Origin: Spirochaetota bacterium
Lineage (GTDB): Bacteria > Spirochaetota > UBA4802 > JAGODF01
DNA: 64,000 nucleotides
NCBI GenBank assembly: GCA_029974015.1
Contig: JARKUF010000017.1
Coordinates: forward strand, 16,206 to 80,205
Direction of reading: 5' to 3'
A model generated the notes under the pieces. That model searched no databases, was not told the origin of the DNA, and was given only the letters and a program-made list of their open reading frames with translations. Positions 20,456 to 63,343 of the stretch are shown one piece after another (positions within the stretch are counted from its first letter, which is position 1; each line of letters begins with the position of its first letter). The translations under genes were made by a program, and so were the position numbers.

Positions 20456-20535
20456 AATTACGTTTTCCCGCCCGCCTCTGGCGTGCGGAAAAACGTAATT
20501 TATCTGACTGTCCTTAATTTTTATGAGGCCCCATA
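20456..20535. repeat. Intergenic element copy: hairpin A, right end and half of palindrome B
   Basis: AATTACGTTTTCCCGCCCGCC-TCT-GGCGTGCGGAAAAACGTAATT, then TGACTGTCCTTAA and TTTTTATGAGGCCCCATA. Confidence 0.8.
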
Positions 20536-24443: not shown

Positions 24444-24566
24444 TGAGGCCTCAAAAAAATAAATTTTTAGAGGCCCCATAAATTGTAACTGCTGACATAC
24501 TCAAGACTTAAGTTTTCCCGCCCGCCGAAGGCGGGCGGGAAAACCTGATTATTTGAGTTTGCCATA
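24444..24566 (-). repeat. Intergenic element copy (reverse): palindrome B, linker, hairpin A
   Basis: GAGGCCTCAAAAAAATAAATTTTTAGAGGCCCCATA, AATTGTAACTGCTGAC, GTTTTCCCGCCCGCC-GAA-GGCGGGCGGGAAAAC. Confidence 0.88.
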
Positions 24567-35871: not shown

Positions 35872-36045
35872 TTCCAGAGTTTCCCGGCAGTTGCGATATC
35901 CGGGAATCTTAAAAAATTAAGGGCAGTCACAAAAAACCAGGTTGTCCCGCCCGCCGAAGGCGGGCGGGACAACCCAAGTCCAGAGTTTGTCAGTAGTTAC
36001 GATTCATGAGAACTTTAACAATATTATTTTAAGGGATTTTATAAT
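35872..36045 (+). repeat. Degenerate element interrupted at TTAA by a second copy
   Basis: CCAGAGTTTCCCGGCAGTTGCGATATCCGGGAATCTTAAAAAA-TTAA-GGGCAGTCACAAA...GGTTGTCCCGCCCGCCGAAGGCGGGCGGGACAACC...GTCAGTAGTTAC. Confidence 0.8.
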
Positions 36046-36099
36046 AAAAATATTGACAATTGGTTAAGGATATTCTCTTTCATCCACCCAATTGAACTA

Positions 36100-40654: not shown

Positions 40655-42519
40655 TTAATTATTCCTCCGCCATGGGATTCGATTTTCCGCTGTAGTTCCG
40701 CTGATTTTTGCAGACGGTACGCTTTTTTCCAGTACATAATCGCGTCGTCCTTGCTTCCGGTCATAAGATATGTATCCCCGATATGATCATATACTACGGG
40801 ATCGGGGGCCCCTTCCCCGTCCAGCTTCCTTTCGGCTTCAAGGAGCTTTTCCAGGGCCTCCCGATAACGCCCCTGGCGGTAGTACGCCCAACCCAGGGAA
40901 TCCAAATAGGCGCCGTTTCCGGGCTCAAGCTCAAGGGCTTTCTCCACGAGCTTTACCGACTCTTCAAGGTTCATATTCCTGTCGGCAAAAAGATATCCCA
41001 GATAGTTGTAGACCCTGGAATTGGCGGGGTTCAGTTGGATGGCCCGTTTCAGGGAATCGATAGTCTGATGTATTTTGTTCTGTTTCTCCTGTACTGTGGC
41101 GAGGTAGAAGTAATAGAGATCGTCCTCCTTGAGGCGTATGGCTTTTTTCATGTTGATTTCGGCCTGACGGTACTTTTCAGTATACGTGTAGGTCAGCCCT
41201 TTGAGGAAGTAGGACTGGGAAAAACCAGGTTCTAGTTTGATGGCGTTATCGTAATACTTGATGGCTTCAGAGTAATTGTTTTTCTGAGAATAGAGGTATC
41301 CGATGTGTACCAGCACTTTGCTGTTTTCTTTGAGCTCATTGGACTTGAGGTAATTGAGGACCGCCATATCGAACATTTCTTTCTCTTCGTATACTTTTCC
41401 AAGGTAGGTGTATATTTCAGGTATGCGGTCTTTAATCGCTAATACTTTCTGAAACATTCGAAGAGACTCATCATAGAGGCCGACATTGTGAAACAGGATG
41501 CCGGAAGTGAAATACTCCGCCAATGCCTTTTCCGATTCGTTTTTTCGATGGTAGGTATTCCCTAATGCGACATGGGGCGATATATATCTGGGATACTTCC
41601 TTATGATGAATTTCAACATTTCATAGTTCTCTTCGTCACGGTGCTGCATCTCCATGAGGAGGGACCGCGCCAGCAGTCCCTCCGGGTCCATTTTTTCCGA
41701 CGCTTTTCTTAGATGCGGCAGTGCCTTGAGATCGTCCCGCAGATAGTACACCCTCCCCAGGTACCCATGGATGCGGGGATCATCATCGAAATTCTCGAGA
41801 TAGAATTCACAGTATTTTTGCACTTCGCCGATTCTGTGATAATCCATCAATAAACCCGCGAGGATATTGTACGCTGAGCTGTTTGTTCGGTTGTTCTCCG
41901 CCACGGTTTTAAAATGGTTGATCGACTTCTCATGTTCCCCTTTACGGTAATAAATGTATCCGGCATAATAATGGGAATATTCCAGGAAATATTCCTCCAC
42001 AGTCTGTTCCTTCGACAATTCGATTATTCGTTCGAAATGGTCCAGGGCCTTCTCCTGGTCCTTCAGCCTGGTGTAGTAAAGATTTCCCAGTGTGTAATGG
42101 GCGTTGACCTCGTCCGGGTATTTTTTTACCAGGGACTCAAGTATGCCCGTGGCCCCGCCATAATCCTTAAGCCGCATATATGCGTTGTAGGAAAGGTAAT
42201 ACGGCTTTTTAAAACTGTCGTCCTTTTCTATGGCAAGCCGGGCATACTTGTCGGCTTTCTCGAATTCGTTCTTGTAGAAATGACATCCCGCCATCTGGAA
42301 ATATACGCGGTGCATTTCTTTTTTTGAACCGAGGGCTTTCTCGAAATACTCAAGTGCAGTGTCATATTCTTTTAGGGATTTGTGGTACAGACCCATACTG
42401 TAGTCGTACCAGTCCCCGGCAATGGAATGGGCCTCGCCCTCGGCGGGAAAGCTTGACTGGGCGAAAAGAACTGCCGCCGGGAACATGGTGAGTACGAGCG
42501 AAAGAAGTACAATTTTCAT
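40651..42519 (-). CDS. Exported multi-TPR protein
   Basis: Signal peptide; many TPRs; C-terminal NYLGY...YLDSLGWAYYRQG motif. Confidence 0.88.
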   Translation of the reverse strand: MKIVLLSLVLTMFPAAVLFAQSSFPAEGEAHSIAGDWYDYSMGLYHKSLKEYDTALEYFEKALGSKKEMHRVYFQMAGCHFYKNEFEKADKYARLAIEKDDSFKKPYYLSYNAYMRLKDYGGATGILESLVKKYPDEVNAHYTLGNLYYTRLKDQEKALDHFERIIELSKEQTVEEYFLEYSHYYAGYIYYRKGEHEKSINHFKTVAENNRTNSSAYNILAGLLMDYHRIGEVQKYCEFYLENFDDDPRIHGYLGRVYYLRDDLKALPHLRKASEKMDPEGLLARSLLMEMQHRDEENYEMLKFIIRKYPRYISPHVALGNTYHRKNESEKALAEYFTSGILFHNVGLYDESLRMFQKVLAIKDRIPEIYTYLGKVYEEKEMFDMAVLNYLKSNELKENSKVLVHIGYLYSQKNNYSEAIKYYDNAIKLEPGFSQSYFLKGLTYTYTEKYRQAEINMKKAIRLKEDDLYYFYLATVQEKQNKIHQTIDSLKRAIQLNPANSRVYNYLGYLFADRNMNLEESVKLVEKALELEPGNGAYLDSLGWAYYRQGRYREALEKLLEAERKLDGEGAPDPVVYDHIGDTYLMTGSKDDAIMYWKKAYRLQKSAELQRKIESHGGGIIK

Positions 42520-42640
42520 TAGGTGTATCCAGCAGGTCGGAAAAGTCTGCTATGTGCGCATCTTTTACCGTCTTTTTAAATATTTGGGCCGCCTCATGAG
42601 GGCGGACCACTTCTCCAAAGGCAAGTAATATATGGCAACT

Positions 42641-42791
42641 TTTAAGGGCAGTCACAAAAACTTCGTTTTCCCGCCCGCCTTCTGCGGGCGGGAAAACCAA
42701 AGTCTTGATTATGACAGCAGTTATAATTTATGGGGCCTCGAAAAATATATTTTTTTGAGGTCTCACACGAGTATTTGTGACTGCCCTTAAA
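42641..42791 (+). mobile_element. MITE-like complete element with perfect 18-bp terminal inverted repeats including flanking TTAA
   Basis: TTTAAGGGCAGTCACAAA (42641-42658) is the exact reverse complement of TTTGTGACTGCCCTTAAA (42774-42791). Contains hairpin A (42665-42697) and palindrome B (about 42729-42765). No coding capacity. Confidence 0.78.
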
Positions 42792-42872
42792 TATTTAGAG
42801 GTACCCATATAATGATATCAGTAAATCGTCAATAATACAAATCAAATATGCAAACAACAACAAATAAAACTT

Positions 42873-42997
42873 CATGGGGCCTTTAAAAATTGAATTTTTC
42901 AAGGCCCCATTTATTGTGACAACTGACAAGTTCAGGACTTAGGTTGTCCCGCCCGCCGAAGACGGGCGGGACAACCTAAGTCCTGTGACTACCCTTG
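42873..42997 (-). repeat. Intergenic element copy (reverse)
   Basis: ATGGGGCCTTTAAAAATTGAATTTTTCAAGGCCCCAT; 53-bp hairpin at 42933-42985; ends in TGTGACTACCCTT. Confidence 0.88.
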
Positions 42998-43168
42998 ATA
43001 TGCACCATTTTCCCAATATCGAAAGCTTTCTTAAAGGGAAATGTCCTCCCGCGGATCGCTGTACCGTGCTTTATGGGGCAGGACTGTTAACCGTCACAGG
43101 GGCCTTGTTTCAAGGTCTTACACCGAAAACAAGTTGATTTTCATCCCGCCTTTTTTATACTATTCCAC

Positions 43169-44125
43169 ATGGGATTGGGGAAAACCATAGTGGTGAAACT
43201 GGCGTGTGTATTCATAATTGTAAAAAACCGCCTGATACGGACTTTTGCGAGAGTAAAGGGCTTTTTCTGCAATGATCTGCGCCAGGCTTTCAGGTATTTC
43301 GAATTACATAATGGCGAATTGTCCACATGCGCCATGGCTTTTTTTCTGTTGATATCGTTCATTCCCGTATCACTGGTCATTATATCCGCGATGAGTTTTT
43401 TTTACCCTTCGGAGAACCTTGCGGCAAGCTCCTACCTCACCCAGATAAAAAACCTCCTCCCATCCATTCAGATGGACAGGTTCATAGCGAACATCGACCG
43501 CATCGTGTACCAGAAGCGTTATCTTGCGTTTTTCTGGGTGCCGTTCCTCTTCTGGTGGGGAAGCCTCGTTTTCGACATAGTGGAGCGGGCCCTGGAGTTC
43601 GCCTTCCGGATAGGTCAGGGGAGGAAATACTGGAAAGCCAAAATACGTCATTTCCTCATCATAATCGGCATCAGCCTCCTGGCCGTCATCCTTACCCTCT
43701 TTTCAAACGTAATTGCCATAATAAAAAACGAATTCATATCCGAATTCATCGGGAAGAATCTGCAGGGGCTCACATTCTTCGGGGCAAATGTGGTCAAACT
43801 CATCCAGGCCCCATTCATACTGCCCGCTATCTTCACCCTTTCGGTAAACACCACCTTGATATTCCTTCTTTACAAGTTCGTGCCTCCCCGGAAGCTCGAC
43901 AACATGTCGATGTTCAAAGGGGCCCTTTTTGCTTCACTAAGCTACGAGTTGATCAAGCTTTTGTTTTCGTATTACATAACCGAAATAAATGACTACACCT
44001 CGATATTCGGTTCCCTGAGCGTCGTGGTGATACTCATGATCTGGATATGGTACACCTGCTTTCTTTTCGTCTTTGGGGCCGAGATGGCATGGGTATTTTA
44101 CGAAAACAGGCAGAGACTCCACTGA
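43169..44125 (+). CDS. YihY/BrkB family inner membrane protein
   Basis: AMAFFLLISFIP, LYKFVP, FGSLSVVVILMIWIWY..LFVFGAE; start uncertain. Confidence 0.88.
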   Translation: MGLGKTIVVKLACVFIIVKNRLIRTFARVKGFFCNDLRQAFRYFELHNGELSTCAMAFFLLISFIPVSLVIISAMSFFYPSENLAASSYLTQIKNLLPSIQMDRFIANIDRIVYQKRYLAFFWVPFLFWWGSLVFDIVERALEFAFRIGQGRKYWKAKIRHFLIIIGISLLAVILTLFSNVIAIIKNEFISEFIGKNLQGLTFFGANVVKLIQAPFILPAIFTLSVNTTLIFLLYKFVPPRKLDNMSMFKGALFASLSYELIKLLFSYYITEINDYTSIFGSLSVVVILMIWIWYTCFLFVFGAEMAWVFYENRQRLH

Positions 44126-63137: not shown

Positions 63138-63343
63138 TAAGGCAACCTATAATACTCAGGCTTTCCCGCCAGCCGAAGGCGGGCGAAAAAGTCTGAGTCC
63201 TGAGTATGCCAGTAGTTACATGCAATCTCTAATAATTAGGCTTTCCCGCCCGCCTTCGGCTGGCGGGAAAACCTAAGTCCTGAGTTTGCCGGTAGTTACA
63301 ATTTATGGGAACCTCAAAAATTTAATTTTTAGAGGCTCCCTTA
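63138..63343 (+). repeat. Two tandem element copies upstream of lysS
   Basis: Hairpin A at 63161 and 63241, each followed by GTCCTGAGT(A/T)TGCC(A/G)GTAGTTACA. The second ends with ATGGGAACCTCAAAAATTTAATTTTTAGAGGCTCCC. Confidence 0.88.

Follow-up and report, generated by a model that had tools for sequence, protein, structure and literature searches.

A T-ended IS5-derived MITE in a spirochaete genome and its nesting beside the paired end repeats of a sister MITE family

Within a 64,000-nucleotide stretch of contig JARKUF010000017.1 from a Spirochaetota bacterium (assembly GCA_029974015.1; the whole stretch is referred to as the window), a short repeat element near position 42,700 lies between two TTAA tetranucleotides and seems to split a palindrome resembling one that the element itself contains. 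This arrangement raises the question of whether the element inserts into a palindrome that it carries, so that each insertion delivers a new target, as an earlier note on this DNA had proposed. We find that the element is a transposed MITE (miniature inverted-repeat transposable element), an ordinary selfish repeat and a new member of the MITEs derived from insertion sequences (IS) of the IS5 family. On balance, we favor a joint reading in which this IS5-derived MITE prefers a TTAA-like site inside the end repeats of a sister family, at the center of the palindrome that these repeats form, and in which a resulting chimera was then amplified.

The element is non-coding, spans 141 bp (42646–42786, plus strand) and has a modular structure. 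It starts with an end repeat, the T end (GGGCAGTCACAAAAAC, 42646–42661), followed by a GC-rich hairpin (A, 42666–42696), a spacer that has a degenerate T-like word inside (S, 42697–42731), an internal AT-centered palindrome of the GGGGCCTC type (B, 42732–42764), and a second T end that is the inverse of GGGCAGTCACAAAAAC with one mismatch (42771–42786). The TTAA directly to its left (42642–42645), which was read directly, is identical to the TTAA directly to its right (42787–42790), and the two represent the copies of a target-site duplication. The earlier description of a T-ended element bounded by TTAA on both sides is thus confirmed, its coordinates having been correct to within 1–2 bases. 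Terminal inverted repeats, the TTAA/TTAA duplication, small size, presence in many copies and the lack of a transposase gene are all features of a bacterial MITE. Exact matches to GGGCAGTCACAA occur in the window at 42646–42657 (plus strand), 42775–42786 (minus strand) and 35921–35932 (plus strand). Matches with up to two mismatches number seven in the window against 3.9 expected, which is not significant alone, so the case is carried by the exact matches and by the genome-wide counts. A search of 42000–43300 against Rfam families gave no hit near its gathering score (best 33.7 bits, threshold 230). A 112-codon open frame on the minus strand (42362–42700) reaches into the MITE from the upstream gene region and is probably spurious; MITE copies can create or extend small frames.

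The genome that carries the window (G000) is a 3.26-Mb draft in 48 contigs. We searched it for T ends as 16-mers with at most three mismatches, pairing ends within 220 bp; a loose half-site pattern was dropped in favor of these 16-mers after the reversed genome proved as rich in it (7533 vs 6356). This census yielded 197 T ends, with a noise estimate of about 31 matches from the reversed-genome control. They are preceded by TTAA in 57 cases, by ATAA in 18 and by TTAT in 14, and the consensus upstream of all T ends is GGGAACCTCTAAAAATTAA. The flagged element is one of 14 full-length T...T' copies of 136–150 bp, which we refer to as family III. Identical 4-bp flanks, the signature of cut-and-paste or copy-and-paste transposition, border nine of the 14 copies (ATAA/TTAT in five, TTAA in two, TAAA and CTAA in one each) and none in a shifted control; these duplications are A/T-rich with a central TA. 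All 14 copies lie outside long open frames. T ends with at most one mismatch number 68 in G000 and occur in six of the 40 relatives searched, at 1–12 matches each, including two genomes of the same order, G033 (12) and G019 (4); the same-genus genome G001, which is 76% complete, has none. In G033, one locus (L010:790-1100) holds head-to-tail T-A-S units, in which the palindrome of one unit is broken at TTGA by the next while the last palindrome is intact; this run could reflect repeated insertion at one spot or unequal recombination.

An insertion sequence with matching ends and a TTAA duplication, which the earlier note had suggested looking for, was found in G019. This 1301-bp element (L013:245-1545) has the ends GGGCGGTCACAAAAAC and GGGCGGTGATAAAAAC and is flanked by TTAA on both sides. 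Its left end is identical to the T end at 15 of 16 positions, and the T-type MITEs therefore share their ends with an autonomous insertion sequence, as bacterial MITEs do. It contains a single open reading frame of 351 amino acids with the Pfam domains DUF772 (1.1e-21) and DDE_Tnp_1 (1.6e-26), and the encoded protein scores 276.9 bits on the NCBIfam model NF033581, "IS5 family transposase", well above the cut-off of 140. Its closest named relative in plasmid records is the transposase of IS1168 from Bacteroides (49% identity). Elements of the IS5 group generate 4-bp duplications at YTAR-like sites. G019 carries at least five full or partial copies of the 1301-bp element, two of them with an in-frame TGA, and further copies are flanked by ATAA, ATAT, TTAA and TTAT. 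The match supplies a candidate transposase family for the T-type MITEs. A search of G000 for an autonomous copy returned seven longer T...T intervals (835–3453 bp) and two near-matches, all with ordinary housekeeping-like open frames and no transposase, and a self-comparison of G000 revealed no IS-like repeat longer than 1170 bp. No match to the G019-type transposase was obtained at E <= 1e-10 in the relatives G021, G036, G029 and G033, whose IS elements are probably unassembled, with their repeat ends lying at contig ends.

The identity of palindrome B emerged from the most abundant repeat of G000. In the 16-mer census this is family I, an element of about 120 bp with the layout G-A-S-B; the T-type element is less common. 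Family I has GGCAACCTCTAATAAT (G) as one end and, as the other, B's outer half GGGAACCTCTAAAAAT (H); the part of this half, or arm, other than the A-run, TTAA and T-run is GGGAACCTC. We counted 132 distinct G/H...G/H copies of 111–135 bp, 116 of them outside long open frames. Their 4-bp duplications are perfect in 44 copies and agree at three or more of four bases in 75, compared with two in the control. G000 contains 95 strictly defined intact palindromes. As the earlier note had observed for several copies, TTAA lies between the arms, here in 51 of the 95, and TTAA, ATAA or TTAT does so in 77. The S module follows the palindrome directly in 76 of the 95, which marks these as the ends of family I elements. 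We also considered the bare 28–50-bp palindrome as a mobile unit in its own right, for which support was weak (perfect duplications in 7 of 69, vs 1 in the control).

The same end repeats occur in other genomes. G036 has a different MITE of about 111 bp with an unrelated interior, bounded by the same H...G' pair (GGGAACCTCTAAAAAT...ATTATTAGAGGTAACC) and flanked by ATAA on both sides (L020:5-115 and L027:2024-2134). In G021, G036 and G029, the H motif is concentrated at contig positions 2–17 or 63–98, a pile-up that suggests the pattern of unassembled multicopy insertion sequences. Among loci encoding homologs of the G019 transposase (41–58% identity, many phyla), eight of the 20 examined have GGG.A.CTC.AAAAA ends, for example L036 (GGGGGCCTCTAAAAAC and GGTAACCTCTAAAAAC), L052 (GGGTACCTCGAAAAAT, flanked by TTAA on both sides), L057 (GGGCATCTCTAAAAAT) and L056 (GGGCAGTTTGAA, flanked by TTAT on both sides). 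G000 itself retains a transposase remnant (C34:133466-133615) that is 55% identical to the L036 protein and is followed, about 145 bp on, by an H-type end (...ATTTTTAGAGGTTCCC) and then ATAA (L015:1501-1813, corresponding to C34:133466-133778). Because the duplicated family I copies, the G036 MITE, the IS5-family loci and this remnant all carry them, the B halves are transposon ends. Palindrome B is therefore not a target supplied by the host; it consists of a pair of terminal inverted repeats that face each other across TAA or TTAA, an H end and an inverted second copy, the repeats being GGGAACCTCTAAAAAT and its GGCAAC variant. The T, H and G ends are variants of one end type, GG(G/C).A..C.C.AA.AA.

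T-type copies are nested beside these B-type halves more often than chance. A border was scored as abutting when an end-repeat half (at most 4 mismatches in 16) ended 3–5 bases from the end of the 4-bp duplication; only two-ended elements were considered. As background we took all TTAA, ATAA, TTAT, TAAA, TTTA, CTAA and TTAG sites outside open frames of at least 150 codons. A half abuts six of the 14 family III copies, as opposed to three of the 132 family I copies (Fisher test, p = 1.8e-5), two of the 33 copies of a composite family described below (family II) and 606 of the 14205 background sites (4.3%). The enrichment over background is about ten-fold (binomial test, p = 1.3e-5). If the presence of a MITE module at most 40 bp from a border is scored instead, the proportions are 8/14 for family III, 16/125 for family I and 6/33 for family II, the last two being pairs before deduplication. 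The six abutting family III copies do not share one duplication (TTAA, ATAA, CTAA, TAAA/TTAA and others), and the abutting end, the half type and the orientation also vary among them; halves are found at the hairpin side and at the palindrome side of the T-type elements, with either orientation and more than one register represented. With more mismatches allowed at the partner end, 18 T...T' pairs (17 loci) have duplications at three or more of four bases, and seven of these rows (six loci) abut a half. The clearest case is a 95-bp deletion derivative on another contig of G000 (C33:4694-4788), which interrupts a canonical B precisely at the central TTAA: it is preceded by GGGAACCTCTAAAAA-TTAA and followed by TTA(A)-ATTTTTAAAGTTTCC, then by S, a decayed hairpin and G'. 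With it removed in silico, a canonical family I element is recovered.

The flagged copy illustrates such nesting less well. Its right arm is a good H-type half (42791–42806, minus strand, reverse complement GGGTACCTCTAAATAT) that agrees with the genome-wide half GGGAACCTCTAAAAAT at 14 of 16 bases, keeping the usual register and adjoining the duplication. The left arm (42634–42641, plus strand) is only GGCAACTT, a truncated GGCAAC-type half whose likeness to the G-type end GGCAACCTCTAATAAT is confined to the first 8 bases of that end and which failed the automated criterion. Excision of 42646–42786 in silico leaves ...GGCAACTT-TTAA-ATATTTAGAGGTACCC, which had been described as a B-like palindrome; taken as a bare palindrome, this site pairs at 12 of 16 positions. 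Pairing at this level or better also occurs in 123 of 3628 AT-rich TTAA windows (3.4%), so the weight rests on the match to the repeat family.

These results redraw the model with which we began. The view of B as a preferred target survives in the excess of abutting copies and in the exact split at C33:4694-4788, but what is split is the paired ends of another MITE family. The idea that the element inserts into a palindrome it carries itself is not supported, since the B halves are the terminal repeats of that other family and the carried GGGGCCTC-type palindrome is the abutting half in 1 of 48 cases; for the same reason, it cannot be said that each insertion delivers a new target. Nesting had further been offered as the explanation for the absence of the elements from genes. 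Family I lies outside long frames almost as regularly as family III yet hardly nests, so nesting is not needed to explain this absence.

We infer that the bias is a target-choice property of the T-type transposase. In the mechanism that we propose, a transposase supplied in trans would recognize the GGGCAGTCACAAAAAC ends of a non-autonomous IS5-family derivative, cut out or copy the element, and insert it at a 4-bp A/T-rich site (TTAA, ATAA/TTAT or CTAA), duplicating the site. The T-type element would integrate preferentially at a TTAA-like tetranucleotide just inside an H or G end repeat, which corresponds to the center of B. At least one such insertion would have produced a chimera whose outer ends (H and G') still functioned, and this chimera may then have been amplified as a 96-bp MITE in which the T end is internal and no longer active. 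The bias itself could arise by two routes: weak binding of the transposase to the related end repeat, which has 9–10 of 16 positions in common with its own end, or a favored bent DNA shape of the A-tract/TTAA/T-tract. We suggest only tentatively that this amounts to inverted-repeat targeting across families, with the T-type IS5 lineage using the H/G terminal repeats of a sister lineage as a landing pad and the sister transposase spreading the chimeras. If this were true, one transposon would hitch-hike on the amplification of the other, and new modular MITE families would arise in this way, namely the 96-bp H-TTAA-T-A-G' and the H-TTAA-T-B-S-A-G' forms.

Several observations weigh against a preference for sister-family repeats. 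The numbers are small, the bias resting on six of 14 copies from a single 48-contig draft genome; the other eight full copies have no abutting half, and in five of these the duplications are perfect and the surrounding DNA is unrelated. In the null model, all of the chosen tetranucleotides outside long frames count as equally available, and a preference for an A-tract/T-tract context would raise the enrichment even if the repeat were not recognized. Five of the six ends of the autonomous IS copies examined in G019 lie in plain AT-rich DNA, and one lies 8 bp outside a B-like palindrome; the palindrome is thus not required. With the criterion trained on G000, only a single T end out of 13 qualifies in G033; by eye alone, a further three are similar and carry the 1-nt-shorter variant of that genome, two of them flanking the full copy L001:2026-2167 (TAAT/TAAT) and the third lying in L010. 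The G019 transposase recovers one 50-amino-acid C-terminal fragment and no intact copy from the G000 assembly, so mobilization there would presumably occur in trans. Finally, no joint that skips 42646–42790 was found in contigs from public sequencing runs (X2, X3, X4 and X5), which show filled junctions only, although contigs drop rare variants.

The rival explanation that survives best draws on some of the same observations. It posits a generic preference for TTAA-like sites in bent AT-rich DNA combined with the survival of harmless insertions, with the B center being the commonest such site and the repeat itself going unrecognized. The A/T-rich duplications with a central TA, the family III copies without an abutting half, the location of the IS in ordinary AT-rich DNA in G019, a genome without H-motif matches, and an enrichment that is about ten-fold over a simple null rather than absolute are all consistent with it. 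However, families I and II occupy the same non-coding space and also have A/T-rich 4-bp duplications, yet rarely abut a half and less often have a MITE module within 40 bp, and selection for harmless sites would be expected to affect the three families equally. Families I and II hardly nest, which speaks against harmless insertions having simply survived, and we consider this rival explanation possible but doubtful. The scarcity of nesting in the two families does not separate the repeat-binding model from the DNA-shape model.

A further account dispenses with targeting altogether and traces the half-TTAA-T junctions to one or a few ancestral chimeras that were amplified or segmentally duplicated. 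The genome-wide survey of flanks that the earlier note had recommended bore out an association, with 48 of 195 T ends adjoining an end-repeat half (39 of H type, 4 of G type, 4 of T type and 1 of GGGGCC type) in addition to the upstream consensus given above, but most of these junctions belong to a single composite element, H-TTAA-T-A-G'. This 96-bp element, family II, is present in 33 copies of 86–110 bp with an invariant order, the H half beside T and the G' half beside the hairpin, and it also occurs in G033 (L005). Outer duplications beyond H and G' are perfect in 11 copies and agree at three or more of four bases in 21, vs 2 in the control. Since the composite has outer duplications of its own, its internal junctions are not independent insertions and represent one ancestral event at most. 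The T-A-G architecture accounts for 15 of the 39 H-adjoining T ends. A T-A-G' segment of 51–85 bp was rejected as a mobile unit of its own, as T...G' borders are perfect in just 2 of 32 cases.

The earlier note had named B halves forming an invariant part of one larger element as a finding that would speak against its model, and this holds for the junctions in family II; the bias nevertheless persists among the full-length copies. Full T...T' copies with perfect TTAA, ATAA and CTAA duplications abut H or G halves in varied registers, ends and orientations, and removal of the C33 copy leaves an intact family I element. Descent from ancestral chimeras as the sole source of the junctions is therefore improbable. 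For family II itself, we infer an origin in the entry of a T-type element at the central TTAA of a family I element, followed by loss of the DNA between the two hairpins. Composites with the insert in the opposite orientation, H-TTAA-T-B-S-A-G' (C19:36031 and C44:123255), and a 159-bp form with GTAT on both outer sides (C27:52129-52287) fit this insertion-then-deletion route.

It is extremely unlikely that short-read assembly of a metagenome bin joined unrelated repeat copies, even though G000 is a 48-contig draft and contigs from public runs end within the flagged element's GC hairpin: X2 and X3, from a study other than that of X1, cover 42250–42671 and 42743–43150, X4 spans 42591–42728, all with 0 differences and together reproducing both TTAA junctions, and perfect duplications in nine of 14 copies are not expected from misjoins. 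The junctions are thus real and no artifact of the G000 assembly. Empty alleles, which the earlier note had proposed as a check, were found neither in the public-run contigs nor in the same-genus genome G001. There, the synteny of the flanking genes is kept (67–72% DNA identity), and the spacer contains a different gene and no repeat, so that no base-level comparison of an empty site is possible. The sole "empty" counterparts are paralogous, uninterrupted family I copies. The additional G001 gene lies at the spacer where G000 has three MITE copies (L016:1546-2235, minus strand, about 230 codons); by eye only, its open frame resembles a zinc metallopeptidase.

To place the element among known systems, we compared it with bacterial IS5-derived MITEs and with elements that target repeats. 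It resembles the former in being short and non-coding, with terminal inverted repeats, 4-bp duplications with a central TA, and ends 15/16 identical to those of a 1.3-kb IS encoding DUF772 and DDE_Tnp_1 domains (NF033581). Unlike known members, it has no intact partner in the G000 assembly, and it has an internal palindrome of sister-family ends and is over-represented beside such ends. Its transposase family would be IS5, not IS30 or IS3. IS30 and IS911 are described as inserting next to inverted repeats, by inverted-repeat targeting and "targeted" transposition, respectively (PMC9333248). The likeness lies in integration beside a terminal inverted repeat instead of a general site, with abutted repeats as the result. 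IS30 is described there as targeting its own inverted repeat, inserting outside it and forming an active junction of inverted repeats in a strict IRL-IRR orientation (PMC9333248). In contrast, the T-type element favors the repeat of a different, related family, at its inner side and in both orientations, with a normal 4-bp duplication. Among the 48 adjoining halves, 39 H and 4 G stand against 4 T, so the target is mostly not the element's own repeat.

IS1397 belongs to the IS3 family and IS1111 to the IS110 family. Both represent a second group of comparable elements, those that insert into short intergenic palindromes. Earlier work reports insertion of IS1397, IS621 and IS1594 into repetitive extragenic palindromes (REP), with IS621 and IS1594 placed in the IS110/IS492 family (PMC3184786), insertion of several Pseudomonas and Sinorhizobium elements, with ISPsy8, ISPa11 and ISPpu9/10 among those named, into intergenic palindromes (PMC1525189), and insertion of IS1111 into QMITE2 of Coxiella (PMC10969869). 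They share with the present case a preference for a short, abundant intergenic palindrome, which offers harmless sites and yields repeat clusters. They differ in being autonomous and in targeting REP or an unrelated MITE, whereas here an IS5-type MITE enters a sister MITE's paired ends, producing a chimera that is mobilized again. The halves in G000 are the ends of MITEs with duplications and of IS5-family elements and in this respect are not REP; no search for REP-associated tyrosine transposases (RAYT) was made. Among eukaryotic MITEs of the Tourist and Stowaway types, the likeness to the G000 case is the insertion of one MITE into another. Jiang and Wessler reportedly used such nested MITEs of maize and rice in 2001 to infer insertion preference. 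We found no description of a nested-insertion preference of prokaryotic MITEs, or of MITEs of spirochaetes, in the full-text collection searched, whose coverage leaves out most subscription journals, so that absence is unproven. Taken together, the preference for sister-family end pairs and the re-mobilized chimeras are an ordinary variation on known target-site behavior and not a new kind of system.

Other copies in the window illustrate the same modules. Next to the flagged element lies a 119-bp B-S-A-T element (42876–42994, minus strand), with a palindrome (42876–42908), a hairpin (about 42940–42978) and a T-like end (42983–42994) but no T end on the palindrome side. Two further sites that the earlier note had read as junctions of a half, TTAA and a T end were confirmed. 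At the first, an H-type half, GGGAATCTTAAAAAAT followed by TAA to give TTAA (35902–35920, plus strand), stands directly before the T end of a T-A-S element with a degenerate B and without a second T end (35921–36047, plus strand). At the second (20510–20532), a degenerate T-type end (...GACTGTCC; ...GTCC, reaching 20513) is followed by TTAA (20514–20517) and a GGGGCC-type half (20518–20532). The abundant family I, whose ends are B halves, is represented by a 119-bp B-S-A-G' copy (24445–24563, plus strand) and by a 120-bp G-A-S-B copy (63221–63340, plus strand) whose palindrome, with its central TTAA, corresponds to the split palindromes but is uninterrupted. Among copies, the GC hairpin's loop is found in either orientation, as GCC-TTCG-GGC or as GCC-GAAG-GGC (for example, 42666–42696 vs 35938–35968), and genome-wide the flanks of the stem differ among copies with compensating changes.

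The intergenic repeat mosaic of this genome is thereby simplified to two related IS5-type lineages, one of which shows a tendency to insert into the other's paired ends. Should the bias genuinely be a property of the transposase, it would constitute a rule of target choice that has yet to be described for the IS5 family and would show how modular, chimeric bacterial MITEs originate. It may also point to a short DNA "landing pad" for directed insertion.

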